Source: an uncultured virus (IMG/VR IMGVR_UViG_3300029309_000017) (Duplodnaviria > Heunggongvirae > Uroviricota > Caudoviricetes > Crassvirales). From it: a stretch of 64,000 nucleotides of DNA. The position numbers were made by a program, and so were the translations under genes. The DNA is taken from the IMG/VR virus record IMGVR_UViG_3300029309_000017; one strand, written 5' to 3'. A model generated the notes under the pieces. That model made no database searches. It was not told the DNA's origin and saw only the letters and a list, made by a program, of their open reading frames with translations. This document shows, piece after piece, positions 17,701 through 49,735 of the stretch (positions are counted from its first letter, which is position 1; each line of letters opens with the position of its first letter).

Positions 17701-18395
17701 AAAGCAGGATCAGTAACGCTTTCATATTCTTGCCTAAGTTCTTTTTCTAAGTCCTCATAGCGTTTTTTACCATTAGGATCAAAACCAATAATCTCATCAA
17801 CTGTAGGCATTGCCTTACCAAACTTTTTGTAAAAACCTTCTTCAGTTAACTTTTTTTCAAACTCTTCCTGTTCAAAAAGATTCCTCTTCTCTTCCTCCAT
17901 TATAGTACCCTCTTCAAGCTTCATCTCATAATATCTTGATGGGTTTTGTTTTTCAGGTAACTTGTGAAGTATACGAGTTTTAGGATCATAAGCATGTGTT
18001 CCTGATTTTACAAGTCTGTTTATTGTTTTATTATACTGTGTATTATCAGACCAGTTATAGTTGTTACCTTCTAATAAAGATTTAGACACTATCCAACCAT
18101 TTTCATCAAGGTTTAAACCCATGTATTTATTATCTGTTAAATCAACATCAACAGTGCTAGAATCATAAGCATACCTAGTCGAGTTTGATCCCGAAGAACC
18201 ATCGACCGAATCGGAGACCGTATTCTCTTCCGACCCTACACTTGTCTCCGCATTTGCAGGGTCTGATTGGTTTCCCGCTATAACTTGCGCGGAAAATGAT
18301 TTAGCCCATGTATCTAAATCAAGACCCATTGACTCAGCAGCGTTTACTGCTTCTTCTTCAGTGTATATTTTTTTACCTACTTTATAATCTGGCAT
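8793..18395 (-). CDS. Giant (3200 aa) internal virion / DNA-ejection polyvalent protein
   Basis: Position after tail genes; HEVLH zincin motif; HAD-like FDFDDT...FADD domain; helical C-terminus. Confidence 0.7.
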   Translation of the reverse strand: MPDYKVGKKIYTEEEAVNAAESMGLDLDTWAKSFSAQVIAGNQSDPANAETSVGSEENTVSDSVDGSSGSNSTRYAYDSSTVDVDLTDNKYMGLNLDENGWIVSKSLLEGNNYNWSDNTQYNKTINRLVKSGTHAYDPKTRILHKLPEKQNPSRYYEMKLEEGTIMEEEKRNLFEQEEFEKKLTEEGFYKKFGKAMPTVDEIIGFDPNGKKRYEDLEKELRQEYESVTDPAFRTSVGVDGSYIDNFDKFLKEKYEEESENDEELDMASFSRADEINKLIKIRESEQYYFNKKRFEVDESYEESYDLVKELEDILEDQRASLYSEAEFEGDRAINLAAEDSQSIDKLLNDLRNNDVYAVENIIKTLEGGNKVRKYIREKNPDLYNRIFKTNDTKVSDDFRLRMSDVTEYVAPGVKGYETRNYRVIEETLKEITKTDDDFSEGFDLYRGGYQGDEEQEIIKFAEDEKMAEKVRNQVIKIIMSDRKIIEKALGPPGSTFGMDRSTLTLEEKEEILSTAKIAVLNSEYEKLEFESDKLQAEAEAIENPTQSDIDKYEALFDDLQDKAAFLTSQLDFNVATKAFNNPNFETTKEFEEWRDSALKNDVWYAGFYDFFAGNTQGIRDFGGEYFVGTGIMANRLLLYTGEGLFGMDVDDERARLDFFDRRFEQDYKENTFGISDFGSEFEGESIGEKFSNINWRNSSKMVSDMLPFTLAIAAAVKKGDVSKLKDSYKVFAKNGKLDWGVKLPKLTVGGREILKGGRYSTGGITNNTIRMAERAYLGTVHENYNEAVNMGMTEGQRLIYANSASLATAVVQSIMPDRNFFNTGAGKIMLDTFKGDLKNAANREAMKKVTGQFFSNLIGEIGEEEAELLLTDFSKIMLGYSNNTGFLNMQTQFETVLGTVLLSGGTSAVTTPGLYKNTKKQVYRNMRADVDGIMDGLKDNVAFYENFYNRALKAGNQKLAARMKADLDAAKAALKHGTNIKNAISLGGEFVTDQEIDLYMEKQALIDAKKRVSADGSSTTTVNTTQTEMIDGVETTVNVETSYDLNGINERIKEIDNAISTGAVNTNLEEINRRTSEAARKTADKLGINYNTYEDDVDADGNVTKSADQKVQEKIDELNAALPERNKGKKKEDQDEKVSVKRVGDNGFIVQYKDGTQEIIINESKSEDAGAVTVAQHEVLHGALNETLRNNPKAAEAMAGSLRQYVDTMIAEGYTPSSYLDVSLRAYESDPNSVRAEEMLTFFSDGLTQGYFSFDENIFTKLGDVIRQAFQNIGIKNVRFDTGRDVYNFIKDYNKQMATGGLRGSLLKGAKKGFKGSLVDGIGAKSELEQITEKIFNAKQKGYGAAIVNLYTPVIKRLVFKSNKNLYNSTDQINQIRYLQSEVLNIVKNHSANSKNSLYDKISDLFKPTGTKSTTKSSKDLYSSTETIMGIEGMDAEQRVDYISNITKDQKTRLGQLVGFEYTNEVKKRLRKYNNIPGFKEVEDNILADITYGTTKTGKSGREIKVGGIVDIVERYSGEIELNRWINGQLDNKIQGIVNSYNLGKESVDFDTTSKNRKQTIKPRNYRKLKDSNLFSGVTLKELKTNVIKVVRVLKTSLNQKISKNVTIPPWIREFKKDIGKLNDLIIKQAMGGLKNNKLSNFLVKNKKAIVENATTTYLGTAIPNALEKSVDGKFTTDWKGKKIDFESSAETGRTSGIELARRKTDISDQDFLSNFGEVEIINGKPVLKKLKRGAKESLAKHLAEEMGLELIEADVEVQNELAKNQQKHNIVNASLDILQISREIKRGNAKSNRSAEQTQAMLFDLMDVAIKNGGSSDVYLRYKAELPNDVILLADEIGLDTYFDEGKTGFKAPLLEWSDTPPVFKPYIDTYRSTITAKSKDVSMKQLADFSEALIDVLPAELVSVLGDDMFAINYNYLDGADKKIKTGKPGKYNYLSKKRRGKAGQASNVKLPFNPSDIEIFNAGTGILKSIATILKKDISADQKRKQIQEKFGDRIAKAEVANIEALKYIMNEATMLIAKRPDLTPGFLRWLESSTSNAKAQRGLTRLPLIQYVDGSMKQDETHVFYDEAVQFAVNRSTNIYEGKSAKFKQETSLEDFIEQRLKNPKTSPEVHLRFKGEHVTPASEVMLELAKISLTTAARINKLGINPNSNSFAGQIESIKTFASLEMDKVLKDYNQTLGAELFSALQDDALGTTSKAGDFRGLAIDASKYNTFTTIDNIQAIEFIKREKLAIDFITELTSDLNINDYINQQNKAQAYDNALTRNKEKKGISVFDFDDTVARSSSKVLYTMPDGKKGKLSATEFAARSSELEAAGAKFDFSEFSKVVNGKPGPLTEKLRKAVDKFGNKNVFILTARPQSSAVAIQKFLKGLGINLKIQNITGLENGAPQAKANWIVAKAAEGYNDFYFADDAYKNVKAVQDALNVLDVKGKVQQAFVKSNQLDKDFNLILEQTTGVEANKNFSLAKAKIRGAGKGRFRFFLPPSAEDFMGLMYDFLGKGKLGEQQKKWIEDNLAKPYARGIAAYEVAKQAMQTQYRNLRRKFPEVRKKLNKTIPGTEFTYDQAVRVYLYNKSGYNIPGLSKADLKELNSIVNGDIELKTFADTLGLITNQKQGYMEPGEYWLTSSIAGDLDSINRNVKRKEFIKEFLENAEVIFSQKNLNKIQAIYGENFREALEDILYRMSNGTNRTFGKNRLVNTWSNWLNNSVGAIMFFNMRSAILQTLSTVNFINWTDNNPFKAAVAFANQKQYWADFAMIFNSPKLRERRRGLKTNVNEAELANAARGAKNKARAVFQYLLKLGFLPTQIADSFAISAGGATMYRNRVNTYLKQGMSKADAEAKAFEDFSMISEEAQQSSDPSLISQQQAGPLGRFILAFQNTPMQYMRLTKKAARDLVNGRGDWKTNTSKIIYYTFIQNLIFTSMQKALFALAFEEEDYKCEGKEGKALERCQNKNNKADVANGMLDTVLRGSGLYGAVIAAIKNGLRQYSKQEEKEFLADHTYTIIELLNLSPPLGSKARKIYSAIQTNRFEKDVIAERGYNLDSPKWSVIGNLVSGFTNLPLDRLVNKMNNIKAAFDDRNAAWKRIAFAMGWNTWDLAAAKNESHEQIKIEAKARRKEEGIKKAAETRRKNKIKEQKKLDNMSYDERIRYEDSIKQKNKKRGQKAAETRRRNKEIADSIALVSYMENIRKLKQQGKINQ
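18212..18276 (-). other. Predicted -1 ribosomal frameshift signal (G GGA AAC plus H-type pseudoknot)
   Basis: In-frame heptamer, 6-nt spacer, stem 1 GACCCTGCA/TGTAGGGTC, stem 2 CGGAGAC/GTCTCCG. Confidence 0.7.
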
Positions 18396-22756: not shown

Positions 22757-25700
22757 TTAACAATTGTTTAATGAATTTGTATTTACTATTGATGTTATAA
22801 TTCCGTTTTCATAAACTATAAACTTATAACCATCAGGATGGTTTGCCCAGTGTGAATTTGATACTAGGTTAACAATAAATATATACCACTGCACGCCTCC
22901 TCCAGGAATAGAAGTATCATTAAATAGAAGCACACCATCATCATTAGCACCTAAAGCAGTACCATCTTCATTATAAAGTTGAGTTCCTACTTGTATACCG
23001 TCTGACGCAAAGTATTTAAAATTAGTTCCTATTTGGTTAATATTTGTAGTGCCATAACCTCCGTTGCTTATATTTATAAAGTTTATTATAGCACACTTGG
23101 CTAGTTGTGGTCTAATATTTTGAGAGTCGCTTGAAAAATTAGTCATAAAATCTATATTATCTGTACCGCTGCTGTTACACATACCTGTTGTTACTCTAAA
23201 TTCAGCGTCTGGTTCTGGCGGCGCGCTACAAGAAGCTAATGTATTGTATTGAACTTTTGAAGTTATTTGACCGTTTTGAACAGTTATAATATAGTAATTA
23301 TTAGGTACCGACGTTGATGTATCATTTATATTTAAAGCAGAGTTATCAGGATCAGCAATAGCATCATTACCTACATCTATATATAAATATTTACCATTCC
23401 ACACTGTATCTACAATATCATAAGGCTCGTTGTTTTCAAACAAAGTTGTTCCTGTATTTACACCAGCGCTTGCAAAATAACTAAAGTCTCTAGCAGTCTT
23501 GCTTATATTAGTTTCGCCAACAGCGTATTGACTATAAAAAGCTTCTATAGCACATTTTACATTTTGATCTGTAGTTTCTAATCTAATATCAGTGTTATTG
23601 CCTTTACCAGACCATAAATACCAAAACCTATTAAACACGTCAGGGGTTTGATTACCAACAGTCGAGCAAGTGTTATCAATACTTACTGTAATATTAAATG
23701 TTGTTGGGGTTCCACCGCTAATATTAGCAACGCCTATACCTTGTGTTGGAAAAGAAGACGAATCAACATTATTGTCACAGTTATCATTGTAGAAAGTTTT
23801 TAAACCTTTTATCTTGTTAAAATATTTATTTTCTTTTTTAACAAACTCTTTTATTTGGCCCTCTTCTATATCGGTATTTATCCAATTAGTATACCAACCA
23901 GGCGTACTTGTTTCTTCGCTTATTTGACTTGGTGGTATTCTTTCGTCTATTATTCTAGCTAAACTTAAACCAGTTCTTCCAGTTGTTGTGTTATATTTAT
24001 ATGCTCTTGAGGCTGTTCCTGTGTAGTTTAGTGTCTTAAAACCTTTAATAGATTCATTAACATCGTTTATAACTACATTTACAGAACAATCATATTGTTG
24101 ACCATAAAAATTACTATAAATATCATTAGAAGCATGTTCCCATATTAAACCTTTATTGAAAGTGTAATATTTGTCGTTTATTGAAACACCACTTTCTAAA
24201 GGATATACAACGCCTCGTGTTGTTGAATAATAAGATTTTCTACTTGGCCAACCATCTACAGTTTCTTTAAATGACACTGTAGTTGTTTTTATATTGTCTG
24301 ATACATCATCAGGCACCTTACAATTTGTTTTATCTCTAGGTGTTGCAGATAGTTTATTTTGCCATTCTTCTGTTAAGTTGTCTAATGTTATATTGTAAAC
24401 CTCTTTATCGTCATTATAACTACCTATAATTTTATTACAAACAGGTAGATTATCAGAAAAGAAATCACTCATACCTTTTAATGCTATTTGAGTAATACCA
24501 TCTTGTGATAACCTTATGACTGTTCCTCTATTTTTATCAGCAAAATAACTTCTAAAACCATAATCAGCAAATGACTCTGGATTAGTACTTATACCAAACT
24601 CACCAGCATAAGGAACTGCTTGACCTAGCACAGCTTTGTTAGATGTGACATTAACATTGCCGTCTGCGTTAAATAGAGCATCTTTATTAGCCAATATACT
24701 TAAACACTTATCTTCACACAAAGTTACTAGATTAGTGTTCTTAGAATGCAGCTTTTGAATACTACCATATTCTGGGTTTAAGTCTTTTGTAATAGGTTCT
24801 GCTTGTATAAACTGATTAGTTCTATTTATTCCAGTTAATGAATTATATATACCAGAAAAAATTAAACCACTACTTCTTCTTTCTTCAGCATAAGGTCCTT
24901 CAAATATACTAGACACTTTAACACCTTTACCTATTTTAGCAGCATTAAAATCATCTCTAATCCTGTCTGATTCTACTGCATTACCAAATGAATAAACATT
25001 AAAATAATCTAAAGCTTTAGCAGATGTACCATTTATTTCACTTATTGGGTATGCTTTACTTGCTTCATAATATATATCAATATCTACAGCTTCTTTAGGT
25101 TCTGTTTCAAATATAGCTGGATTTGTAGAAGACAATATAGTATTATTTTCTCTAGTTTCTTCTTCAAGCAAATTAAACCCACCAACGTTTGCTATTAATT
25201 CTGCTTTAGTAGTACCAACCCAATCTTCAGTTATATCTTTATCTAGTATTAAACATAAAGAAAAATGATAATTCATATCTTTATCTTTTTGATTACTACA
25301 ATCAGCAGTCATGTTTTCTATAGCACCTCTAAAAGTACCATTTCTATAAGCTCTTTTTATAGTATAAACTTGAGATTTTTTTCCTGCATGTGAACCTCTA
25401 CCAAAAATTTCAACAGCTCTACCCTCTTGAGCATCTGTCATTGGTTGACCAACATAACCATCTCTATCTCCAAACTCATCTTCACTCAAGCTTTTTCTAC
25501 CAACATAAACAATAGATAAAACGTTGTTGTTTTGTCTTGGAGGATCATATACCTCCCACATCTTTTGATCTGGTCCCGGATCACTATTAGCTGGGCTTCC
25601 ATTGTAACCACCATTACCTTTACCATTACCACCATAAGCGCCACAAAGTTTATACTTACCATCTTCATTACCACCGCAAAAATTTGGAGGCACTCCGTCA

Positions 25701-28444
25701 AAATCAGTTTCACCTTCATCTCTCCAATAAAAACCTCTTTTCCAACCATCTCCATTAGGATTACTAAAGTTTTGAAAACAATTACCAAGACAATTCGCGC
25801 AATTTCCAGAACTAATCACGTCTGAGTTTTCTTTAATAGAACCAACTATGGAATAAGTTTTTTCTAAAGCTGCAAATGATTTTTCTATATTTGTTTCAAA
25901 ATCTGTATCTCTGTTTATTTTAACAAAAAATCTACCTTCATACTCTGGTAATCTTTCTATTTTATTTTCTAGTATTTTTATAGTCACATTAGTGTCTATA
26001 GCTAAACCATTAATACCCATAAAACTAGCAGAACTATCCATACCTTTATCAAGGTTTACTAAATATTCGTCACCAGCACTAGAAACTGGTCCACCACTAT
26101 CTATACCAAAAAGATCTGTTTTTGCACCACCAACTGTAATTTCTATAAATCTATCACCTTTAAATCCATTTCTAAAATCAGGATTTTCACTTATAGCTGG
26201 ACCTTCAAATCTTATTTGTGAAAAATCTTCAGCAAAACCAGCTTTAACTTTACATTCAGCTATACCAATTGCTTTAGGTGTAGTTGCGACAAAATCTGGA
26301 ACTTTACTAGATATATCCAATATTTTATATCTACAAGGACCTATTGAAGGATTATCATTATCGTGTTGTTTTTTAAGTATTAGATATGTTTCTTCATCAA
26401 CTTTGTTTCTTTCAGATGATGGAAAACTTAGCCAAACATTACCATCTTCAGCTGGATAAAATCTATCAAGAGCTAAATTATAATACTCATTGCTAATATC
26501 TTTAATAAAATACTTAGCATGTGTAATTTCTTGTGGTAAATTAACTTGGTTTAATTTAGCTAAAAACTTATTTGTTCTTTGAGCATTTTCTTTACCTAAA
26601 TTATAAGTTGCACTTGGATTTGTAAAAACAGGTGTTTGTCTACCGTATATATCTTGAAAAACAATACCAAGTTGATAATTTCTTATAGTTTTTATAGAAG
26701 GAAAAGGTCTTCTAAAATCTTGATTAGCAGGTGTTATTTCATTGCCGTTAGCGTCTAAGCCAGGACCTTCACCAGGATGCTCAGAACTATCTACATCTAA
26801 CTCTATTATACATTTAGGTGTAGTTATGTTTTGTACATAATTTGCGTATATTAATCTATTAGCAGATATTTCTTGAGCTAAAGCTTTTTTAGGAACATTA
26901 TCAAATGGTCTAAGTATTTGATTAGACTCTACTGTTTGACCAATTAATTCTGTTTTTAATTCAAAAGAAGTTACGCTTTTATCTTTTATAGTATCTACTA
27001 CATATATATTATTTGATCTAGATTTTTTAAATAGAATATCTAACTCAATAACCTCTTGACTACCCCAATCCCAGTCTTTTATTATTAAAGATCTTATATG
27101 GTTTTGCATACCTAAGTTAAAACCGTCAGAAGATAAATACTCAAAATCATCGCCTTCAAAAACAACTTCTGTAAAAGGTGAAAAACAAGAGTATTCATTG
27201 TTTTCATATTTCCATCTATATGCAAATCTGGGAAACTCAAACTCAAACATGGGGTCTTTTTCTTCTAATAAAGCCTCCCAAACAATTAAACCAACCGGTG
27301 TTTGTATTGTGTTTATTACTTCAAATGGACCAAATCTTAATATTTTTTTTGGTATAGACTGTATTTTACCTACTATGTATTGACCATTAACAGAATCTAT
27401 TTTTATTCTTATTTGATATTCATTTGTATTATTGTCATCATCAATATTACCACCGTTTAAAACTATTATATCGTCTTGTTGCCAAGAGTTTTGAACAGAT
27501 TGATTAAAAGGTCCTATAGTAACAGTTTCCATATTAGCTGGAAATACAGGGTCTGTCCCTTGTTCTGCGGCTAACTCTTGATCAGCAAGCCACTCTCCAT
27601 ATGTTGGTAATGGTCTAAATTGAGCTGCTAAAAAAGTTGTTGATGGCTCGTTAACATATGTAAAATTATACCATAAAGGAGCTATTGGTTCGCCATCTAT
27701 ATTGTTTTCACTACCACCAGCGCCTAATGCACTACCGTCATAAGTTACAGTTACTGGCGTTACACCTGTACCAGGTAATTCTTGCCCAGCGGCAGATCTA
27801 GTGGATGTTGATATATCTATTTTAGGAGCATATAATGGTGATTTTTTAATAACAGTAATATCTGCTTCTGTAAAATCAGTGCCAGAAGAATTATATGTCC
27901 AATCCTGTGAAGAAGAATCAAAAGTAGGTATTTTAGTGTGTATGTTAAAAGAAGTTGAATTTGTACCTGCTTTAAATTTTTTTATATTTATTTTTTTAGG
28001 CTCTGTTTTATTGTCTGTAAAAAACAATAAATCATCAACTATGTTTATACCTGTTATGTGTTGATCTTTTGTAAAATTTAATATATTTTTTGTATCAATT
28101 AATATAGGTGATACAATTTTTGTTTTAGTATTATATTCTGCTATTGTACTAATACTATCACTAGCTATAAACCAATATATGCACTCAGTTGGCTCGTGTC
28201 TTATAGAACCTATACAAACAGGATTAGAATAACTACTTATATAATTGCTTGACCAGTTTTGATCAGGCGTATAGCCTTTTCTTTCTGTATTACCTTTTAG
28301 GTTTTGTAAAGCACCAACATTGCTGGACTCGGATGTAGCAACTGTTACGTTTAAAGCATCACGGTAACTTCCATTGGGAACCATTCTCTCGTCAAGATCA
28401 CCTTCCATCTTGCCGCGAGTAAAGTTATGAATAAATTCTGGCAT
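22757..28444 (-). CDS. Tail stabilisation / nozzle protein
   Basis: N-terminal F..G.M..DLDERMVPNG.YRDALN motif; beta-propeller-like; 1895 aa. Confidence 0.7.
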   Translation of the reverse strand: MPEFIHNFTRGKMEGDLDERMVPNGSYRDALNVTVATSESSNVGALQNLKGNTERKGYTPDQNWSSNYISSYSNPVCIGSIRHEPTECIYWFIASDSISTIAEYNTKTKIVSPILIDTKNILNFTKDQHITGINIVDDLLFFTDNKTEPKKINIKKFKAGTNSTSFNIHTKIPTFDSSSQDWTYNSSGTDFTEADITVIKKSPLYAPKIDISTSTRSAAGQELPGTGVTPVTVTYDGSALGAGGSENNIDGEPIAPLWYNFTYVNEPSTTFLAAQFRPLPTYGEWLADQELAAEQGTDPVFPANMETVTIGPFNQSVQNSWQQDDIIVLNGGNIDDDNNTNEYQIRIKIDSVNGQYIVGKIQSIPKKILRFGPFEVINTIQTPVGLIVWEALLEEKDPMFEFEFPRFAYRWKYENNEYSCFSPFTEVVFEGDDFEYLSSDGFNLGMQNHIRSLIIKDWDWGSQEVIELDILFKKSRSNNIYVVDTIKDKSVTSFELKTELIGQTVESNQILRPFDNVPKKALAQEISANRLIYANYVQNITTPKCIIELDVDSSEHPGEGPGLDANGNEITPANQDFRRPFPSIKTIRNYQLGIVFQDIYGRQTPVFTNPSATYNLGKENAQRTNKFLAKLNQVNLPQEITHAKYFIKDISNEYYNLALDRFYPAEDGNVWLSFPSSERNKVDEETYLILKKQHDNDNPSIGPCRYKILDISSKVPDFVATTPKAIGIAECKVKAGFAEDFSQIRFEGPAISENPDFRNGFKGDRFIEITVGGAKTDLFGIDSGGPVSSAGDEYLVNLDKGMDSSASFMGINGLAIDTNVTIKILENKIERLPEYEGRFFVKINRDTDFETNIEKSFAALEKTYSIVGSIKENSDVISSGNCANCLGNCFQNFSNPNGDGWKRGFYWRDEGETDFDGVPPNFCGGNEDGKYKLCGAYGGNGKGNGGYNGSPANSDPGPDQKMWEVYDPPRQNNNVLSIVYVGRKSLSEDEFGDRDGYVGQPMTDAQEGRAVEIFGRGSHAGKKSQVYTIKRAYRNGTFRGAIENMTADCSNQKDKDMNYHFSLCLILDKDITEDWVGTTKAELIANVGGFNLLEEETRENNTILSSTNPAIFETEPKEAVDIDIYYEASKAYPISEINGTSAKALDYFNVYSFGNAVESDRIRDDFNAAKIGKGVKVSSIFEGPYAEERRSSGLIFSGIYNSLTGINRTNQFIQAEPITKDLNPEYGSIQKLHSKNTNLVTLCEDKCLSILANKDALFNADGNVNVTSNKAVLGQAVPYAGEFGISTNPESFADYGFRSYFADKNRGTVIRLSQDGITQIALKGMSDFFSDNLPVCNKIIGSYNDDKEVYNITLDNLTEEWQNKLSATPRDKTNCKVPDDVSDNIKTTTVSFKETVDGWPSRKSYYSTTRGVVYPLESGVSINDKYYTFNKGLIWEHASNDIYSNFYGQQYDCSVNVVINDVNESIKGFKTLNYTGTASRAYKYNTTTGRTGLSLARIIDERIPPSQISEETSTPGWYTNWINTDIEEGQIKEFVKKENKYFNKIKGLKTFYNDNCDNNVDSSSFPTQGIGVANISGGTPTTFNITVSIDNTCSTVGNQTPDVFNRFWYLWSGKGNNTDIRLETTDQNVKCAIEAFYSQYAVGETNISKTARDFSYFASAGVNTGTTLFENNEPYDIVDTVWNGKYLYIDVGNDAIADPDNSALNINDTSTSVPNNYYIITVQNGQITSKVQYNTLASCSAPPEPDAEFRVTTGMCNSSGTDNIDFMTNFSSDSQNIRPQLAKCAIINFINISNGGYGTTNINQIGTNFKYFASDGIQVGTQLYNEDGTALGANDDGVLLFNDTSIPGGGVQWYIFIVNLVSNSHWANHPDGYKFIVYENGIITSIVNTNSLNNC

Positions 28445-31407: not shown

Positions 31408-32883
31408 TTATGATTTTTTCAATAATACAAAGTTGTTAGCCGCTTGTACACATAAACATCTTTCTGATAAGAAGTTTACAGTCATTACGTCTAATGCTGA
31501 AGTAAAGTTACCACCAACAGATCCAGTAATCCAAGACTTCATACGTCTGTCATCAGCTTCTGAAGCTCTATAACGACAGTGTAAGAAAGGTCTTGAAATA
31601 TTTCTACCTAAACTTTGATCGTATACTGTACTTGTACCAGCAGGTACCATAATACCCTCAATGTCAGCAATTAAGCCTCTTGTTGTAGAGTCATTAAGAT
31701 ATTTCCAGTCAGACTTATAAAAGTCATATGATCCTCTTCTAAATCCAGAGAAACCTAAGTTAAGCGCCATATCCTCAGAGTTATCAAATACACCATAAGA
31801 TGTACCACCTTCTCCATAAGAATTTTGATTAGCTAACATTTTATCAATTGATAAAGCAGTTGCTCTGTCTAAGAACATCATGTTCTCTTCAATAGCTCCT
31901 TGCTTATCAAGCTCTTGTAAAATATTATCAAATTCTAGAATACCAGCGTCAGCATTTGCGTTTCCAAAGTTTTGGTCGTTATATACCAAACCTCTAGACT
32001 CAACAGCAGAGAATAAACCTTCACTACCTGTAGTTTGTGTACCAGCTAAACCTGAAGCAGCAACAGCTTTTTCAGCTTCAATCATTGCCATTTCTAGTTT
32101 GTCTTCAAATCTAATTCTTGTTTCAGACTCAGATTTTAAGTACCATAAGTAACCAGAAGCACCAGCTTCAGTAGCTACTTCAACCCAACCAATTTGAGCT
32201 GTATCAGATCCTGAGATCTCATACTTACCTTTTAAAATGATTGGCTTGTTAGTGAATTTTCTGAACGGAGCGTCTACTGACTTTTGTTTATCGTTATCAG
32301 TACCTTTTGCATACTCAGAACCATAAATAAATAGTTTTACTGCAGCAGCACTAAATCCTGCGTCGTTTCCACCATTACCTACGATCTTATCGTGTCCATA
32401 AGCAGCTACATCAAATGTAACTCCACCACCACCAAATCCAGATATTCTTGCTTTTACAGTTTTATTTCCTTGAGAAATAACAACTGTATCACCTTCAGAA
32501 TATAGTTTAATTTGTTCGGTAGCTTGTTGAAATACTTGATCGGTTGCGCCTGAAGTTCCAGGATCGTTTACTAAAGTAATTCTATCTTGTCCAGCTCCAA
32601 CGTTTGCGATAGTCGCGTTGTTAGAGGCTACATGAATTCTACCTTGCTCAGTCCATACAACTTCGTCAGAAGCCATAGGCATTTCAGCACCTACCATACG
32701 TAAGAAACCAGAGATAGTACGATTACCGTATCTTTCTACTTCTTTCTCATAAACTTCTGGTAAAAACTGCTTAGCAAAGTTGAAATCGTTATCTGCAATT
32801 GACAAATAGTTATTGTCATATGCGAGTTTATTTGGGCGTGGTACTACGTGTTGTAATTCCGCGCCAGTTCCAGCTAAAGCCAT
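31408..32883 (-). CDS. Major capsid protein
   Basis: 491 aa following scaffold; FLPEVYEKEVERYG, WTEQGR, LGFSGFRRG; codon usage typical of high expression. Confidence 0.8.
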   Translation of the reverse strand: MALAGTGAELQHVVPRPNKLAYDNNYLSIADNDFNFAKQFLPEVYEKEVERYGNRTISGFLRMVGAEMPMASDEVVWTEQGRIHVASNNATIANVGAGQDRITLVNDPGTSGATDQVFQQATEQIKLYSEGDTVVISQGNKTVKARISGFGGGGVTFDVAAYGHDKIVGNGGNDAGFSAAAVKLFIYGSEYAKGTDNDKQKSVDAPFRKFTNKPIILKGKYEISGSDTAQIGWVEVATEAGASGYLWYLKSESETRIRFEDKLEMAMIEAEKAVAASGLAGTQTTGSEGLFSAVESRGLVYNDQNFGNANADAGILEFDNILQELDKQGAIEENMMFLDRATALSIDKMLANQNSYGEGGTSYGVFDNSEDMALNLGFSGFRRGSYDFYKSDWKYLNDSTTRGLIADIEGIMVPAGTSTVYDQSLGRNISRPFLHCRYRASEADDRRMKSWITGSVGGNFTSALDVMTVNFLSERCLCVQAANNFVLLKKS

Positions 32884-32907: not shown

Positions 32908-34107
32908 TTATTTTCGTTTTTTAAATCCCCACTTAACAACCTGCCCATCAGCGTCTACGGATCTATATGTTGTACCTTGTTGAGGTACGCCACTTTGACT
33001 TTTACGAGGGTCCATACTGATATTTTTTGTATTAGCAACACTTTGCTTCATAGCATCAGCTTTACCTTGTTCGTAGAAATGATTAGCGATTGCATCAGGA
33101 TTCATCGCTGTGAATAAAGATTTATGATAGCCAGCAGCGTCTTCCATTTCATTACTTTTATTAAGAAACTTCTTAACAAAGTTGTTAATGTTGCTTTGAC
33201 TTTCTTTTACCTCATTCGGGTTTTTCACATTAAACCTAAACCTTTTGTCCCCGACCTTGTATTCAAAACCTTTGAAGCTGTCATTGAAAACCTGGTTAGT
33301 TTTATTGTTGAAAGTTTGAACCTGCTTATTAGCAGATTCTTTTTCTTTGTTATATCTATTAAAGAAATCAACAGCCTTTTGTTGCTCAGGACTTAATCTT
33401 GAGCCGGCTTTAATTTCTTCATAGTATTTTGTTTTTAAGTTGTTTAAATGATTTTTAGCATTTGCTAATTCTTCTTTCCTAGCCAACTTTTTTCTTTTAA
33501 TATCTCTTTCGTCTTCTTCATCTTCATTAATTGAAAACTTATCATCAATTAAGAAGTTTATTTCAGAAGGATCAAGATGTGGTCTAGTATTTTGATAATA
33601 CTCTACAAGTAGTTGCTCTTCGTTTAAAGCATCTACATCTTGATTTAATCTTACGTAGTCTTCTAAAGTTCCACCTGTTTCATTTACAAAATCAACAACT
33701 TTCTGTATATTTTCAGGTAGATCAATACCTCTGTCTTCGTTGTCTAAAGCTTGTTCAACTTCTTCTGCTAAATCTTCAGCTTTCTCTTGTACCTGTTCTT
33801 CCGTTATTTCTTCAAGAACAACTGGCTCTTCATTTTGAACGGAGCCTTGTTGTTGTGGTACTTCTTCTTCCACTTCTTGTACAGACTCGGTTTGTTTATC
33901 TGTAGCCACGTCTGTTGTTTCTTGCTTTGTATCGGCATCTTTATCTTTCTTTGGTACTAAGTTTGTAAAATCTACTTTAGGCACACCGTCTTCACTAACG
34001 GTTACCTCAGGTACTAGATCATCACCTTTCTTTGTCTCTTTAGCAACAGGTTTAGTTTCTTCAACTTTCTCTACTACTTCTTCGACTACTTTTTCTTTTT
34101 TAGCCAT
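32908..34107 (-). CDS. Scaffolding protein
   Basis: Acidic N-half and coiled coil, between portal and MCP. Confidence 0.7.
   Translation of the reverse strand: MAKKEKVVEEVVEKVEETKPVAKETKKGDDLVPEVTVSEDGVPKVDFTNLVPKKDKDADTKQETTDVATDKQTESVQEVEEEVPQQQGSVQNEEPVVLEEITEEQVQEKAEDLAEEVEQALDNEDRGIDLPENIQKVVDFVNETGGTLEDYVRLNQDVDALNEEQLLVEYYQNTRPHLDPSEINFLIDDKFSINEDEEDERDIKRKKLARKEELANAKNHLNNLKTKYYEEIKAGSRLSPEQQKAVDFFNRYNKEKESANKQVQTFNNKTNQVFNDSFKGFEYKVGDKRFRFNVKNPNEVKESQSNINNFVKKFLNKSNEMEDAAGYHKSLFTAMNPDAIANHFYEQGKADAMKQSVANTKNISMDPRKSQSGVPQQGTTYRSVDADGQVVKWGFKKRK
33804..33938 (-). CDS. Overprinted small basic protein (44 aa) inside the scaffold gene
   Basis: MPIQSKKQQTWLQINKPSLYKKWKKKYHNNKAPFKMKSQLFLKK*; A at -3; resembles GYKSAAQRKAVHANK in ORF 49040. 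Confidence 0.5.
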   Translation of the reverse strand: MPIQSKKQQTWLQINKPSLYKKWKKKYHNNKAPFKMKSQLFLKK

Positions 34108-34128: not shown

Positions 34129-36555
34129 TTATTTTGGTTCAAATGAACCTAATCCAAATCCTCCACCCATAATATCGTTTCCTGCGGATTCAAAATCTTT
34201 AGGGCCAGAGTCATTTTTTCTTTGATCAATCAACTCGCTTTGTTGAGTTGCTTGTATTTTAGTTCTTTCGTCTTTACGATCTTCTTTAAAAGATTCTTTA
34301 TTTTTAGCTCCTTCAACTTCCATGTTTTTTAACTGCATGTTAAAATCAAACTCCAACCTCATGAGCTCTTTCTTTAAATTAGCTTCTTGCTGTAATTCGT
34401 TATTTTTTAGTTTAGCTTTTAATTGCTCCATTTGTGATTGTATTTGGAACAATGCTTGTGATTTTTGTACTTCAGCTTGAGCAGCAACTTGCTGAGCCTG
34501 AGCGTTAGCTTGAGCTTGAGCTTGTATATTTTCTTGCTGCATCATTTGATCTCTTTCTTGTTTTTTCTTACGTCTTAATTTAAGTAATTGATTAGCAAGT
34601 TTTATATTTGATATTTCTCTAAGATCAATAGCGTCTTCTAAATCTATCAAACCTCCAGATACAGCTGCTTGTATATTATTCTCAAGCATTTGTTTTTCTT
34701 CATCATCAGGTGTTAGTTCTATAAATACACCAAAGTCGTGTAGGTATAAATCTTTAATATCTTCTAAAACACCTACATTATGATTTCCTATTTTTTGTAT
34801 AAAAGCATCTTTAGCAGGTGAAAACTCCAGTATATCAGATATTCTTAATGATAAACCTTCAGCTAACTCTTGTGTTATTGTTACACCTGATTGAAGTATG
34901 TGTCTTGTAGCTGTGTTACTATTTGCAGCTGCTAGCTTCTGAACACCAACTAAAGCTTTAGAGTCTGGCGTACTACCATCTCTTGCTTCGTTTAATCCAG
35001 TCACATCTCTTATCATTTGCAAATAATAATTATAATTAGATATAAGACTTTGTAATTTACCACCACCGTTTCCAGATGTTATTTCTTGAATAGGTACTTT
35101 ACCTGGATTCATGTCGCCTTCAGAAGTGAAAGATCTACCTATAATAGATCCCGTCTGAAAGAACATATTTAAAGCTTCTTGCGGATTATAATTAGTTCCA
35201 TTACCTAAATCAACTTCAGCTAAACCATCAGCGTCAAGATAAACACCATCTGGCACCATTCTTGACATAACTTGCTGTAACTTTAAATGTGTTAATTGAA
35301 TCATATCAGCAAAACCAGTAATACGCTTAACTAATGAATCAATACGTCCTCTATACATTCTAGGAGCACACATAGCGTAATTCATTTTAACCTTGCTATA
35401 ATCACTTTTAGGTCTCATCATATTTTTAGCAAGCTCCCACTTCAACAACATATCTGAACCTAATATTAAAACGCCTTCATATAAAACTTCTAATGATCTT
35501 GATATTTTACCAAAATTACCAGACATTTCATTTATAGGTGGATCAAATGTATCGTCTCTTAATATTATTTTTTCAGCTCCAGTGGCTGTTTCTTTTACTT
35601 TATAAACTTCATTCATATAAGTTTTATAATTAAAATATAAAACTTGTATTTGGTTTTTATCATTATAATAGGTTGAACCATATCTACTATTAGCATAGCC
35701 ATCTGAATGTATTGCTTGAGACTCTATGTCTTTTAGCTCTTGATCAGTTAGATTTGGAAACTCTTTTTTAAGCTCGTTTATAGGTATTGTTTTTACTTCA
35801 CCTACATAATAAATATCTTGAAAATTTGGATCTTCAGTATACGAATATACTAAATTAGCAGGATCAACGTATTCTACTTTAACACCTTCAGAAGTTGTAA
35901 AAGTGTTTTTTACAGCACCAATACCTAAAGTTGTTAAATCATAATTAACTCTGCGTCTAGTTAAATCGTATCTATTACCGTCTAATAAAACATTTATAGC
36001 TTGCTCTTCAGCTAATTCAATACCTTGCTTATAACTAAGCTGCATATGTAAATCTAATTCTTCTTTTGAATCAGGTAGTTTTTCGGGTGGATTTTCAAAT
36101 AAACTCATACCAAAAGCTTCTTGAGCAAAGTCAGAAAGTTCTTTTGTTTGCATGTCTCTTATTATAGATTCCATGTATTTTGTTCTCTTACTCATACCGT
36201 AAGGATCTTGAGAATAAGCTTTTATATCAAATGTTCTCTCTGATATTCCATTTACTACTATATCTACAAACTTAGGTATAATAGGCACTGGCTTCCAATC
36301 TAAATTAAGATATGATAAGTCACCGTTTATAGATAGTTCATCTTTATACTTTTGTATAGGCTGTTCTCCTCTAGCATATAATCTTAATCTATGAAACTCC
36401 ATTTGATGTTGATTATATCTATGATTTGAGTTTGACCTATCAAACCACTCGTACTCTATAGCCTTAGCTACTTTTAAGCCGTACTCTGCACTAACTTTTT
36501 CTATGTCACTTACAATTTGACTCGGAAAATAACCTTTTACAACTGACTCAGCCAT
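34129..36555 (-). CDS. Portal protein
   Basis: 808 aa after terminase; PIIPKFVDIVVNG; Q-rich C-terminal barrel helix. Confidence 0.85.
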   Translation of the reverse strand: MAESVVKGYFPSQIVSDIEKVSAEYGLKVAKAIEYEWFDRSNSNHRYNQHQMEFHRLRLYARGEQPIQKYKDELSINGDLSYLNLDWKPVPIIPKFVDIVVNGISERTFDIKAYSQDPYGMSKRTKYMESIIRDMQTKELSDFAQEAFGMSLFENPPEKLPDSKEELDLHMQLSYKQGIELAEEQAINVLLDGNRYDLTRRRVNYDLTTLGIGAVKNTFTTSEGVKVEYVDPANLVYSYTEDPNFQDIYYVGEVKTIPINELKKEFPNLTDQELKDIESQAIHSDGYANSRYGSTYYNDKNQIQVLYFNYKTYMNEVYKVKETATGAEKIILRDDTFDPPINEMSGNFGKISRSLEVLYEGVLILGSDMLLKWELAKNMMRPKSDYSKVKMNYAMCAPRMYRGRIDSLVKRITGFADMIQLTHLKLQQVMSRMVPDGVYLDADGLAEVDLGNGTNYNPQEALNMFFQTGSIIGRSFTSEGDMNPGKVPIQEITSGNGGGKLQSLISNYNYYLQMIRDVTGLNEARDGSTPDSKALVGVQKLAAANSNTATRHILQSGVTITQELAEGLSLRISDILEFSPAKDAFIQKIGNHNVGVLEDIKDLYLHDFGVFIELTPDDEEKQMLENNIQAAVSGGLIDLEDAIDLREISNIKLANQLLKLRRKKKQERDQMMQQENIQAQAQANAQAQQVAAQAEVQKSQALFQIQSQMEQLKAKLKNNELQQEANLKKELMRLEFDFNMQLKNMEVEGAKNKESFKEDRKDERTKIQATQQSELIDQRKNDSGPKDFESAGNDIMGGGFGLGSFEPK

Positions 36556-36556
36556 A

Positions 36557-38770
36557 TTAATTTTCTATTAGTTTTGAACGCACACCAGTTTGCTTGTATC
36601 TAGCTATGCTTAAGTTTAATTTTTCTTTTTTCATAATTGGATTTGGTCTATACAAGTGTCTGTTACAAGCCATTATAGCTAAACCGCTACTAATACTCGC
36701 ATCAAACTTTGTACGGTTATTAATATCAAATTTCGCCCAGTCTTGTAATGTTTCATTAAAATAACAATTACCATACATGCCATCTGGTTTTATGCCAACG
36801 CTATTTTGTATATACATTTCTATCGCAGCAGCATGAGCCTGTTTAACATCTTCACTTGAATTAGGTATACCACCTATTTCTTTTTCTGCTGTTGATAATT
36901 TATTCCATATTTTATCAGGCCTATTCATTGAATAACCTCTATACCCACGCCTTCTTAAATAATACAATAGACGAGGTTTATTGTTTTCTGCAAGTAAAGG
37001 CATTCCGTAAAAAACTAATGCCATTAGAACGTCCTCAAAGAACATCTCTGCAGTTGCTGGCCTTGCAATATACTCTAAAAAAAACTGATTTGGCGGACAA
37101 TCTTCCATACTAAACTTAGTTAAACCATGTAAAGCACCTTTTGATCCTTGACCATCTACAGTTCCTGATATATCGTAACTATCACAACCAAAAGCACCCA
37201 TGTGCTCGTTGGCTGGATATTTAATGCCATTTTTTATTATAAATTTATTTTGCTGGTGTTGAGGTGGAACCCAGCTAATCTTAAACCTACCTTGAGCATT
37301 AGGATAAAAAATAACATTACTATCTTTTATACCATTTATCCATTGAAAACTACCGGTAGTTATTTGAGAATTATTATTTAAATCCTCGTTAAAATCTATT
37401 TGTTCGTATATTTTTGCTAAATTAAATATACTATTTTTAGTTTCATCTCTAAAAGCATGTTCTTCAGTTCTTGGAAACTGTCTATAAAACTCATTTAAAG
37501 CATCACCATCGTTTTTTAAACCATCAACCTCGTTTTGCCAGTGCTCTAGTATACCTGTTTCAATTACCTCTCCAAAAGGACCGAAAGCCTCTTGCTCTGG
37601 AGTTTCGAATACAGGTAAGCCATAAGAATCAATGAATCCCTCGTAGTTCCATTCCATAGGTATGAACAAAGAATATAATCCTGAGCTTGTCTGTCCATTG
37701 CGGTTTCTTTTTGTAACATCTGAGTTTTTATAAAGTTTTTTAAAATTATCACCACCTTTATCTAAAGCGTTAGATGTTGAACCCATCATACACTTACCAA
37801 TAACTCTACTACCTAATCTTAATGTGGTTTTCGTAACCCTCCAGTTGTTGAGGATGTTGTTCGGCCTTTCCCACTTCCCCGACTCATCATGGACGAGGAG
37901 CTTGAGTTTCTCCCCATCGTAGGAGTTATCGCCGGTGTTCTTCCAGTCGATTGTGGTGTCCAACCCCTCGAGGTCCTGTGTGGTTTCGTTTGTGGTAAGC
38001 TTACGTCTGGTAAGTTTGCTGGCGGGGACACGGAAGGCAAGCTCGGTCTTTGGACGGTCCATTCCGTCCTGGATGGGTTTGAAAAAGAAAGGGTAGTTGA
38101 CAGATATGGGTACCACCTTATCGGTGAACATCTTCTTGGCATCAGGCCCAGACTTGGATAATATACCATACCTGGAGTCACTTGATATGGTTGCCAAGTT
38201 AACCACCTCTCCTGAGGCCATAAAAGAAAACCCGGACCGCCTATTCTTAAGGTAACACATCCCATAGGATCGTGAATCTGCCTTACAAGCTTCCCAGAAA
38301 ATAAAGAATAATCTATTTGCTTCTCTAAAATCTGGTGCTCCGACGTCAATTTTAGACCACTGCAAGTACATGTAATGAGTACCACTAATGTAAGTAGGAA
38401 CGCCTTTGTTATAAAACCAAAAACCTTCCTCCCTACGGGTAAATTCATTATCGATGTAATCATACCATTGTTCTTTAAAATCTTCTGGATATTCTTTCCA
38501 GTCAAATACTGTTTTTATTCTAGCTAAAGCTTTAGGATATTCAAATTTAGTCCATTTGTCTTCTTTGAACTTATGTATTTTTTTAGCTTTAGGTAACGCT
38601 ATTCTAAGGTTTTGTATTTCATATATATCACCTATAGTACCATCTTTACTTATAATTACAATATCATGTTCTTTATTATAACCATACTCCCACTTCTTAG
38701 ACTTGTTAAGTCTTTTTATAGTGTTTATTTTAATAGGTTCAATAACCTTGTATAGAGTTTGCTGGTACAT
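36557..38770 (-). CDS. terL: Terminase large subunit
   Basis: Walker A LKNRRSGFS, Walker B LLVHDESGK, GSTSN, nuclease FGCDSYD and D..ISS. Confidence 0.9.
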   Translation of the reverse strand: MYQQTLYKVIEPIKINTIKRLNKSKKWEYGYNKEHDIVIISKDGTIGDIYEIQNLRIALPKAKKIHKFKEDKWTKFEYPKALARIKTVFDWKEYPEDFKEQWYDYIDNEFTRREEGFWFYNKGVPTYISGTHYMYLQWSKIDVGAPDFREANRLFFIFWEACKADSRSYGMCYLKNRRSGFSFMASGEVVNLATISSDSRYGILSKSGPDAKKMFTDKVVPISVNYPFFFKPIQDGMDRPKTELAFRVPASKLTRRKLTTNETTQDLEGLDTTIDWKNTGDNSYDGEKLKLLVHDESGKWERPNNILNNWRVTKTTLRLGSRVIGKCMMGSTSNALDKGGDNFKKLYKNSDVTKRNRNGQTSSGLYSLFIPMEWNYEGFIDSYGLPVFETPEQEAFGPFGEVIETGILEHWQNEVDGLKNDGDALNEFYRQFPRTEEHAFRDETKNSIFNLAKIYEQIDFNEDLNNNSQITTGSFQWINGIKDSNVIFYPNAQGRFKISWVPPQHQQNKFIIKNGIKYPANEHMGAFGCDSYDISGTVDGQGSKGALHGLTKFSMEDCPPNQFFLEYIARPATAEMFFEDVLMALVFYGMPLLAENNKPRLLYYLRRRGYRGYSMNRPDKIWNKLSTAEKEIGGIPNSSEDVKQAHAAAIEMYIQNSVGIKPDGMYGNCYFNETLQDWAKFDINNRTKFDASISSGLAIMACNRHLYRPNPIMKKEKLNLSIARYKQTGVRSKLIEN

Positions 38771-48230: not shown

Positions 48231-48590
48231 TTATGCGTTTTTAACAGAGCCGTAAGCTCTTGTTTTAGCTCCTTTTTCCCATGGAAACCTATTGTCACCT
48301 TCTTGAAGCCATTTGCCATTATATAATATTCTGCCGTTTTTTCTTGGATAAGTCTTGTTTTTATAAGTTATACTATGATCGGTGTAATCTAGTACGCCAG
48401 ACTCCATATCTTTTTGATGCTCTATCTCTTCTTTAACAGCATGTTTTTGCATTGCAGGTGAAACATCTTTACTTACAAATATAGTTCCATCTTTGTTTGC
48501 TTCAGCTACAACGCCTTTATCTAGTTTTTTCTCTATTACAGGATAATCTTTCCTTTTTTTAAAAGGACTATTGTTCTGTATATAAGGCAT
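48231..48590 (-). CDS. Putative zincin-like metallopeptidase with SPFK motif
   Basis: AEANKDGTI...KEEIEH (degenerate HExxH)...PWEK. Confidence 0.45.
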   Translation of the reverse strand: MPYIQNNSPFKKRKDYPVIEKKLDKGVVAEANKDGTIFVSKDVSPAMQKHAVKEEIEHQKDMESGVLDYTDHSITYKNKTYPRKNGRILYNGKWLQEGDNRFPWEKGAKTRAYGSVKNA

Positions 48591-48592
48591 AT

Positions 48593-49036
48593 TTATTTTT
48601 TGCTTTTACCCATTTTACCTGGGCCTCCAGCTTTAGTACATCTTACACCCCAACCAGAAGCATAAGCACTAGGCCATACATCAAACTTTTTTTTAGCAGC
48701 TGTTTTACAAGCTCCACTAATTTTTTTAATTGGGGAACTTTCACCATATTTATCACCTAAAATTCTTTTAGATTTTCTTTCTGCTTTTTTATTAACTCTA
48801 TCAACAACTTTTTGTTTTCTTTTTTCAAGTCTTTGAACTTTTCTATCACCTCTTGCTTCTAATCTTTTAGTTTTTTCAAAAGCTTTAGTGTCTTTTTTAT
48901 CAACTCCAATTTGTTTAATAGGTGACTCTTTCATAGGCCAACCAGCTGGTGATACCTTAGGCGAGTCTGATTTACCACCCGGCTTTGGCATACCTTTTTG
49001 AACTATTGCCGTTATAGGCATATTTACATTTCCCAT
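48593..49036 (-). CDS. Basic SPxK-motif protein
   Basis: SPIK twice; WPSAYASG motif. Confidence 0.65.
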   Translation of the reverse strand: MGNVNMPITAIVQKGMPKPGGKSDSPKVSPAGWPMKESPIKQIGVDKKDTKAFEKTKRLEARGDRKVQRLEKRKQKVVDRVNKKAERKSKRILGDKYGESSPIKKISGACKTAAKKKFDVWPSAYASGWGVRCTKAGGPGKMGKSKK

Positions 49037-49039
49037 AAT

Positions 49040-49735
49040 TTATTTTTTATTACAATGTGCCTTAGCTGGCGATTTTTTATATTTTTTAGCTGGAGATTTC
49101 TTCATACCACCGCATTGTTTAGCTGGTGATTTACCAGATGTTTTTTTCATAGCTTTTATACCAGCTTTGCCAAAACCACCACATTGCTTAGCAGGAGATG
49201 ACTTCTTTAGTTTACTCATCTGCTTAGCAGGTGACTTCTTTTTATCAGGATGTCCTGCGCCGCCATCAGCTTTATTAGCGTGAACAGCTTTTCTTTGAGC
49301 AGCTGACTTATATCCTTTAGCTGGTGAAGATTTTTTAAGATCTCCAGCACCTTTACCATCTGCGGCAAACTTAGGTACTTTCTTACCATCAACTTCAACC
49401 ATCTCCATTTTTTGTTTAACTGGAGAGTTTTTTTCTTCTTTCTGCTTTTTTCTTAAATCTCTTCTTTCTTTTCTACGCTTTCTTCCTTCTTCAGTAGATA
49501 TTTTAATATTACCTATTTTATTGACTAAGTCTTTAGCGCCTTCAGCTACTTTTCCAGGCACATCTTTTAATTTAACATCTCCTTTTTGTTTAACTGGAGA
49601 TGCACAATGTGCTTTAGCAGGTGAAGCTTTTATTGCTGCTTTTAAACCTTCGTTAAGGTTTTTTTGATTACCAATTAAAGCCTTTAATACAGGGCTTTTT
49701 GGCATCATTTTAAATGGTGATTTCTTGTAGGCCAT
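49040..49735 (-). CDS. Lys-rich protein with about 11 SP(A/V/F)K repeats
   Basis: Repeats visible in translation. Confidence 0.75.
   Translation of the reverse strand: MAYKKSPFKMMPKSPVLKALIGNQKNLNEGLKAAIKASPAKAHCASPVKQKGDVKLKDVPGKVAEGAKDLVNKIGNIKISTEEGRKRRKERRDLRKKQKEEKNSPVKQKMEMVEVDGKKVPKFAADGKGAGDLKKSSPAKGYKSAAQRKAVHANKADGGAGHPDKKKSPAKQMSKLKKSSPAKQCGGFGKAGIKAMKKTSGKSPAKQCGGMKKSPAKKYKKSPAKAHCNKK

Follow-up and report, generated by a model that had tools for sequence, protein, structure and literature searches.

Genes embedded out of frame within larger genes are textbook features of tiny phages such as phiX174 and of lysis cassettes such as Rz/Rz1. We have analyzed a stretch of 64,000 nucleotides (the window) from an uncultured virus of the Crassvirales (IMG/VR record IMGVR_UViG_3300029309_000017), in which a small open reading frame (ORF) lies out of frame inside a gene for a scaffold-like protein. 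In the tailed double-stranded DNA phage lambda, the small gene Rz1 lies wholly inside Rz in the +1 frame, and inner genes of this kind are usually missed by gene callers; the relatives of Rz/Rz1 have embedded, overlapped or separated architectures, as outlined in PMC6139136. In phiX174 the lysis gene E lies out of frame inside gene D, the gene for the external scaffolding protein (outlined in PMC3324380). The phiKT protein gp28 is described in outline as a cationic peptide for outer-membrane disruption in lysis (10.1101/515445). We consider it very probable, at roughly 0.85, that the ORF of the window is a genuine protein-coding gene, nested in the +1 frame within the acidic linker of the scaffold-like gene, as judged from comparisons between related sequences.

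An earlier description of the window made without database searches (the sequence-only reading) had quoted a 44-residue ORF on the minus strand, and translation of the interval matches it, the stop codon included. The features of the locus are as follows, where L numbers denote relative loci in IMG/VR.

33804..33938, minus strand: the nested gene, 44 codons closed by a TAA, at +1 relative to the host gene (from the ORF listing and translation)
33939..33963, minus strand: the A-rich leader before the nested ATG, with a nested-frame stop six codons upstream (from the sequence)
33804..33818, minus strand: the end of the nested ORF, with its TAA inside the scaffold-frame motif L-E-E-I-T (from three-frame translations and alignment with L003-L008)
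32908..34107, minus strand: the host gene, encoding a 399-residue scaffold-like protein, between the portal and major capsid-like genes

The nested ORF occupies nucleotides 170-304 of the 1200-nucleotide host gene, lying wholly inside it on the same strand with an offset of +1. In the host protein an N-terminal segment (codons 1-56) is followed by an acidic linker (~57-128) and then by a conserved C-terminal body (~129-399), and the overlapped stretch corresponds to codons 57-102, part of the variable linker. A single stretch of 135 bases is thereby read as a Lys-rich peptide in the nested frame, with 13 Lys and neither Asp nor Glu in its 44 residues, and as an Asp/Glu-rich stretch in the scaffold frame. 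A basic gene fits an acidic, disordered linker because its Lys codons (AAR) are read one base earlier as Glu codons (GAR). The peptide begins MPIQSKKQ, fitting the pattern M-P-[FI]-x-S-K-x-Q at the start codon, and includes the stretch QQTWLQINKPSLY. The APFK motif that had been pointed out is present, and the bases preceding the ATG are AAAG, placing A at -3 as described. The patch is also GC-richer than its flanks, as had been claimed (0.407 compared with 0.363 for 135 nucleotides on each side, 0.345 for the host gene and 0.333 for the window). Of three scaffold codons named in the same description, GAG and TCC do lie inside the stretch (together with GGC, GCC and ACC), whereas ACG is the first codon after it. 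The L-E-E-I-T motif in which the nested gene ends is conserved in the scaffold frame even in relatives that lack the nested gene.

Relatives were collected from IMG/VR through the scaffold protein, so that ascertainment was independent of the inner frame; the best 80 of 587 confirmed relatives were analyzed. All 80 have a full-length scaffold orthologue, with the outer frame open through the overlap. In these genes and that of the window (81 in all) we counted ATG ORFs of at least 36 residues in the +1 frame that begin in the first 450 nucleotides. Such a linker ORF is found in 61 of the 81: 27 belong to family A, the window's kind, 31 to family B and 3 to neither. The consensus of the scaffold-nested copies is MPFQSKKQ...KKW.KKY... 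for family A and MKLKKITLTTREWLQSL.MP.PQKNKKKYNRK.KHKK for family B. Homology between the two was considered and rejected, with an hhalign probability of 0.4%.

The cleanest single result for selection on the inner frame comes from comparison of the window with L002, whose scaffold protein is 85% identical. There are seven base differences in the 135-nucleotide ORF, all located at codon position 1 of the scaffold frame; all seven alter a scaffold residue, and none alters the peptide. The same pattern is seen in the wider families. For family B the diversity at scaffold codon positions 1, 2 and 3 is 0.285, 0.149 and 0.148 within the overlap, compared with 0.191, 0.122 and 0.353 in the rest of the gene, and for family A the corresponding values are 0.402, 0.324 and 0.363 compared with 0.281, 0.190 and 0.465. 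Within the overlap the scaffold wobble position is therefore suppressed, and scaffold position 1, which is the wobble position of the inner frame, is the most variable. The sequence-only reading had proposed synonymous-site constraint in the scaffold frame as a test of dual coding, and this constraint is found, both in the wobble diversity of family B and in the seven differences from L002 that are silent for the peptide.

Selection ratios were obtained from an OLGenie-like estimate with a codon bootstrap. For family B the inner-frame dNN/dNS in the overlap is 0.28 (Z -5.5). The scaffold-frame dNN/dSN is 1.02 for B and 0.89 for A in the overlap, falling to 0.25 and 0.34 respectively downstream. 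For 404 of the 406 pairs of family B sequences, amino acid identity is greater in the inner than in the scaffold frame (0.73 vs 0.58). Both frames are maintained; within the overlap the stronger amino acid constraint falls on the nested frame, the scaffold frame being preserved as open and acidic.

Codon choice in the nested gene reflects the same double burden. When the peptide was held fixed and its codons were redrawn from the usage of the window, the scaffold frame was open in none of 20,000 draws. The third positions of the nested gene (G23 C10 A9 T2) are far from the 41% T and 39% A of the window's genes. Together these indicate that inner codon choice has been shaped by the outer frame. 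The claim of a dual-coding stretch is thus upheld by conservation and by purifying selection on the inner frame.

The peptide is a member of a family that extends well beyond the scaffold gene. We searched with two profiles, A1 built from 23 nested peptides and A3 from 101 aligned members. In 5.8 billion sequences the A1 profile matches 62 called proteins with E no higher than 1e-3 (the best being 3.3e-10), most of which are stand-alone genes of 34-50 residues that open at an identical MPFKSK and follow the pattern MPFKSKKQ...KKW.KKYG; some share INKPSLYKKWKKKYG with the window peptide. By BLASTP the window peptide is identical to one stand-alone protein (P0008) at 21 of 27 positions (E 3e-10). 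The A3 profile gives 3609 cluster representatives at E up to 1e-3, 129 of them at 1e-10, and here the module mostly forms residues 1-40 of proteins of 39-1014 residues. Among the 101 members, which were selected with M, residues M1, P2 and Q8 are invariant, and S5, K6, P17 and W23 are conserved in at least 90%. The family consensus is MPFKSKxQ...W...N.P...KKW.KKY followed by a Lys-rich tail, in free-standing proteins of 34-52 residues, and the window peptide fits it. A family of small phage proteins of the MP(F/Y)KS..Q type, which the sequence-only reading had suggested looking for, does therefore exist.

The family overlaps phrog_1375, which is matched by 26 of the 101 aligned members (best E 1.8e-6), and also by stand-alone and long N-terminal forms. 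No function is recorded for phrog_1375 and its record makes no mention of nesting; the common core is MPFKSKAQ...A.NP..AKKW. Pfam contains no family that matches. Its domain DUF3008 (PF11450) gave no row for the window peptide and five relatives at E up to 10, or for eight stand-alone members at E up to 1. The sole lead to this domain is an Atlas row at 0.78, with the domain in 15% of cluster members.

Homologues found by tblastn lie in phage 023Pt_psg01, Phage C75C1, Synechococcus phage S-CBS2, Prochlorococcus phage P-RSP2 and seven Streptomyces phage records; five homologues from this whole set were inspected. In 023Pt_psg01 the homologue is an annotated coding sequence of 39 residues between portal and head genes. 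In C75C1, S-CBS2 and P-RSP2 the match falls between annotated genes, with no annotated coding sequence over it, and that of Streptomyces phage FlowerPower is gene 48, flanked by a 'peptidase' and a holin. The window peptide itself and a family-B protein gave no tblastn match in GenBank phages, where the low-complexity filter may hide Lys-rich hits. For family B, too, there are called homologues, 210 of them at E up to 1e-3; those inspected, 22 in number, are mostly stand-alone genes of 39-51 residues, and some stand-alone members lie on contigs of 145-165 kb. Judged from its sequences, family A represents a large and so far undescribed group of small phage proteins or N-terminal modules. The motif 'MPFKSK' was not found in the literature searched, whose coverage excludes most subscription journals.

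Loci were also collected from IMG/VR with the peptide profile; 77 of the best 80, from at least 143, were analyzed, and some are the same contigs as in the scaffold-based set. In 65 of the 77 the ORF lies at +1 inside a BLAST-confirmed scaffold orthologue of 39-85% identity, a range that excludes near-clonal loci, and these copies keep start, stop, sequence and place down to 39% scaffold identity. Two further copies are nested in a scaffold gene, one that is cut by the contig end (L124) and one with an upstream in-frame stop (L128), the latter an exception to the open outer frame. In six loci (L118, L127, L136, L155, L156 and L158, each at ~3501) the ORF is nested at +1 in a giant ORF of 1148 to 2320 residues with 15-18% Asp+Glu. 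The host frame there again reads DAIQEQET across the nested start, and the first 84 nucleotides are up to 86% identical to scaffold-nested copies. In three loci (L115-L117) the module is the N-terminus of a protein of 160-438 residues, and one (L138) is the only truly stand-alone locus. The giant ORFs of L118 and L136 and two long N-terminal forms have no Pfam or PHROG match, and five of the giant ORFs (all except L127) have no blastp match at 1e-3 to the window's large proteins.

The linker site has other occupants. In L121-L125 a family-A ORF is followed in tandem by a family-B ORF (MKTITLKRSQWLEALKVPTPHRNKKKY...) in the same linker and the same +1 frame (for example L124:3501-3629 and the next downstream). 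L027 and L032 carry a different 46-residue +1 ORF (MSLKNNHWQKSQQLMKQWEEK..., 2840-2977 in L032) at the equivalent site, which may represent a further nested family. Family B is degenerate in the scaffold linkers of L047 and L048; in L048 the first ATG is gone, with the frame and an internal Met kept, and in L047 a deletion leaves MKQNKKKYNRKNKH.... This hints that the core of family B is its C-terminal KNKKKYNRK.KHK part.

The sequence-only reading called the gene overprinted. Taken to mean a gene born inside the scaffold gene, this would make any stand-alone copies later exports. Glu-rich linkers do automatically provide open Lys-rich +1 frames, and nesting is much the most frequent arrangement at the peptide-profile loci. 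Birth in place would predict an absence of homologues outside the lineage of the host gene; instead they occur in unrelated phages and contigs, including phages of Streptomyces, Synechococcus and Prochlorococcus whose head genes are unrelated. The family is also very broad, with 3609 cluster representatives and with the module at the N-terminus of proteins of such different lengths. Moreover, close relatives with conserved flanks differ in whether they have the cassette, the unrelated family B with its own called homologues occupies the same site, and a second kind of host gene, the giant ORFs, carries the same cassette. De novo overprinting thus appears unlikely, and the word does not suit this gene. 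The gene was probably acquired or exchanged as a cassette rather than born in place, given the breadth of the family, its presence or absence between conserved flanks, the alternative and tandem occupants and the second host gene.

How might such a gene be expressed? An A at -3 is found in 78-81% of nested starts, compared with 65% of the canonical genes of the window and 29% of 693 background internal +1 ATGs in it; of 78 distinct family-A starts, 78% have A at -3 and 85% have A at -11. For 101 of the 103 instances an in-frame stop precedes the start by 14 codons at most, and among the fetched loci the nested frame was never found fused to the scaffold N-terminus. A-rich initiation that is free of a Shine-Dalgarno sequence is a feature of Bacteroidota. 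The A-rich leader, the invariant M1 and the nearby upstream stop fit Shine-Dalgarno-independent internal initiation, although the A-richness of the leader is also a consequence of Lys/Glu coding. The peptide would then be translated by independent internal initiation at the conserved ATG on the late head-gene mRNA, helped by the A-rich leader.

A number of observations weigh against our account of this ORF, and we bring them together here. For family A the signal is modest, since the inner-frame dNN/dNS of 0.52 (Z -4.6) in the overlap must be set against a ratio that is already 0.59-0.68 in flanking linker free of the ORF. The pairwise signal of family A is also weak, with mean identities of 0.41 in the inner frame and 0.38 in the scaffold frame; of 300 pairs, 193 favor the inner frame and 100 the scaffold frame, and 7 are ties. 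The strongest figures are those of the window's own subfamily of 33 distinct sequences (identity 0.77 vs 0.56, inner frame higher in 527 of 528 pairs, position diversity 0.315/0.209/0.094), and they are biased because the sequences were picked with a regular expression for the peptide. The window peptide matches no Pfam family, and no PHROG family at E up to 0.01, phrog_1375 included; it is tied to phrog_1375 by profile only, through relatives that do match. Among 30 longer family members there is one NUDIX match, one ParB-like match and one weak AAA match, domain fusions that are too sparse to serve as a functional clue.

In addition, 20 of the 81 scaffold genes have no such ORF, including the next-closest relatives L003-L008 (66-73% scaffold identity). 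An interrupted frame in close relatives, together with a lack of synonymous constraint, had been proposed as grounds for abandoning the gene. The first of these is seen in L003-L008, yet it is the whole linker cassette that is replaced there, by a shorter acidic linker with stops in the +1 frame, and the flanks are conserved, with 118-130 of 157-166 upstream bases identical; the second is contradicted by the constraint described above.

Among the 62 called proteins, about nine mix the two frames in a fusion with scaffold sequence, leaving room for other modes of expression. Six called proteins (P0009, P0017, P0030, P0032, P0033 and P0057) join scaffold N-terminal sequence to the peptide in one frame, and three (P0001, P0064 and P0065) join the peptide to downstream scaffold sequence. 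These may be real frame-fused variants, or the result of indel errors in A-runs. If real, they would favor expression of the +1 segment as an isoform of the scaffold through programmed frameshifting or transcriptional slippage, with no separate protein. The invariance of M1 (in sequences selected with M), stand-alone homologues that start at exactly the nested Met, the nearly universal upstream stop and the lack of any fused locus among those fetched all argue for a start of its own, and no slippery site turned up, though no search aimed at one was made. We regard the isoform as very improbable.

Finally, the length of the ORF alone is not beyond chance. Synonymous shuffling of the host gene produced a +1 ATG ORF of at least 44 residues in 19.5% of 5000 trials (P = 0.195), and left these exact 44 codons free of stops in 4.3%. 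The window contains 14 nested same-strand ATG ORFs of at least 44 residues in 17,027 host codons, and the nested gene is the shortest of them. The acidic linker of Maribacter phage Panino has an open Lys-rich +1 frame of 80 codons with no homology to the family; acidic linkers yield such frames regardless. It is conservation and codon choice, not length, that exceed chance. A chance ORF or the decaying relic of an inserted gene, for which these length statistics leave room, is the most remote of the alternatives, given the conservation of start, stop and sequence across scaffolds of 39-85% identity, the seven silent differences from L002 with the suppressed scaffold wobble, and the significant similarity to stand-alone genes.

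An AlphaFold2 model of the nested peptide (predicted local distance difference test score 85.4) contains helices at residues 6-15 and 17-28 followed by a basic tail, so that the predicted fold is a two-helix hairpin and then a flexible basic tail. Comparison of the model with the Protein Data Bank (PDB) using Foldseek gave nothing at E up to 0.001, and the best Z in a wide VIA-align search was 2.2; for a hairpin of 44 residues the absence of a structural match is no evidence of a new fold. Eleven rows at E up to 1 in a profile search of PDB sequences, headed by the designed repeat proteins Bagel and Cake, were rejected as spurious, no single stretch passing alone.

The product might bind nucleic acid, or some other polyanion, while heads are assembled or packaged. 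This is a guess and the weakest step of our proposal; it is favored by the charge of +13, the Lys-rich tail, the occurrence of the module at the N-terminus of varied proteins (ParB-like, NUDIX) and its frequent placement in head modules. A cationic peptide acting on membranes in lysis, of the phiKT gp28 kind, provides an alternative lead by analogy.

The genes that flank the host gene are as follows.

34129..36555, minus strand: portal gene, immediately upstream of the host gene (matches phrog_6547, portal protein, at E 2.7e-155)
31408..32883, minus strand: gene for a major capsid-like virion structural protein, immediately downstream of the host gene (matches phrog_13704, a head and packaging family, at E 4.1e-92)

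The position and composition of the host gene suggest a scaffold protein. The sequence-only reading had named it as such, and the location between portal and major capsid protein genes agrees, but the label stays putative because no PHROG matches the protein at E up to 0.01, and the Pfam rows that it does give at E up to 10, four in number, are all under the Pfam cut-off. In cultured phages only residues 129-392 are conserved, at ~34% identity (Maribacter phage Panino and the Flavobacterium elemo phages). The scaffold genes of Flavobacterium phage elemoF and of Panino contain no family A or B ORF, and blastn of the scaffold gene against GenBank phages gave no match. Elsewhere in this region, an ATG ORF of 214 residues at 37819..38463 (minus strand) lies in the +1 frame of a portal-adjacent gene of 737 residues (36557..38770, minus strand); it is very long for a window of 33% GC, and its translation is rich in Pro, Ser, Thr, Gly and Arg. 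The structural region also contains two very large ORFs of 3200 and 1895 residues, at 8793..18395 and 22757..28444 (both minus strand), with no blastp similarity to the giant cassette-bearing ORFs of other contigs.

A resemblance of the peptide's N-terminus to another ORF of the window, 49040..49735 (minus strand), had also been suggested. This ORF contains GYKSAAQRKAVHANK, and its likeness to the nested peptide is confined to the four-residue motif SPFK/APFK. The family profile finds only the nested gene in the six-frame translation of the window (E 2.9e-21), and the A1 profile does not list ORF 49040 there at E up to 10. The suggestion is therefore not borne out. The ORF encodes one of three adjacent basic proteins of 119, 147 and 231 residues at 48231..49735 (minus strand), all rich in SP[AFVI]K motifs and with nothing but the SPFK motif in common with the nested peptide; that of 231 residues has about nine SPAK/SPVK/SPFK repeats in addition to the GYKSAAQRKAVHANK stretch, and that of 147 residues has a weak match to phrog_727 (E 1.1e-5).

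An embedded gene is unexpected in a head module when the phage has 64 kb of DNA or more and is not short of space. What sets this locus apart is that the inner frame is the more constrained, that the site hosts alternative, unrelated small genes, sometimes in tandem, and that the same cassette occurs in a giant gene. This suggests that disordered linkers are a general, overlooked place for phages to carry small genes, and that there is a large family of tiny basic proteins that standard annotation misses when they are nested. Since the nested start codon could be destroyed by a change that is synonymous in the scaffold, the locus offers a clean test system. More tentatively, at least two unrelated Lys-rich gene families may act as portable dual-coding cassettes in large virion genes with acidic linkers (those for the scaffold and for a protein of ~2300 residues), with the AAR/GAR phase permitting insertion or swap without breaking the host ORF. 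Gene callers would not see such genes, which would be expressed along with the head genes and whose products might bind the acidic linker encoded by the same DNA. We would presently regard this generalization as doubtful.

How does this compare with the known systems? Among the papers listed on overlapping genes and scaffolding proteins of phages, none deals with a gene nested in the scaffold gene of a tailed phage, as judged by titles and the beginnings of abstracts. The likeness to phiKT gp28, taken from its description, is that both are small, strongly cationic phage peptides, and the FlowerPower homologue lies near a holin; it provides a functional lead only. The nested peptide differs in having a conserved hairpin core (W, L, Y) that looks folded, and in lying in head modules. 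Rz/Rz1, as outlined in the source cited above, shares the arrangement of a small inner gene at +1, wholly within a larger gene of a tailed phage. The nested peptide differs in having neither lipoprotein signal nor membrane segment, and its host is a head-assembly gene rather than a lysis gene. Furthermore, the nested family occurs in two host genes and as stand-alone genes, and nothing here indicates an interaction of inner and outer products. E and D of phiX174, as far as the cited outline extends, provide the other parallel, a small out-of-frame gene inside the gene of a scaffolding protein. phiX174 is a microvirus with compact single-stranded DNA and its E protein acts on membranes, whereas here there is ample room. 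Because the inner product in the present case would be a soluble Lys-rich peptide with many stand-alone homologues, acquisition is likelier than birth de novo.

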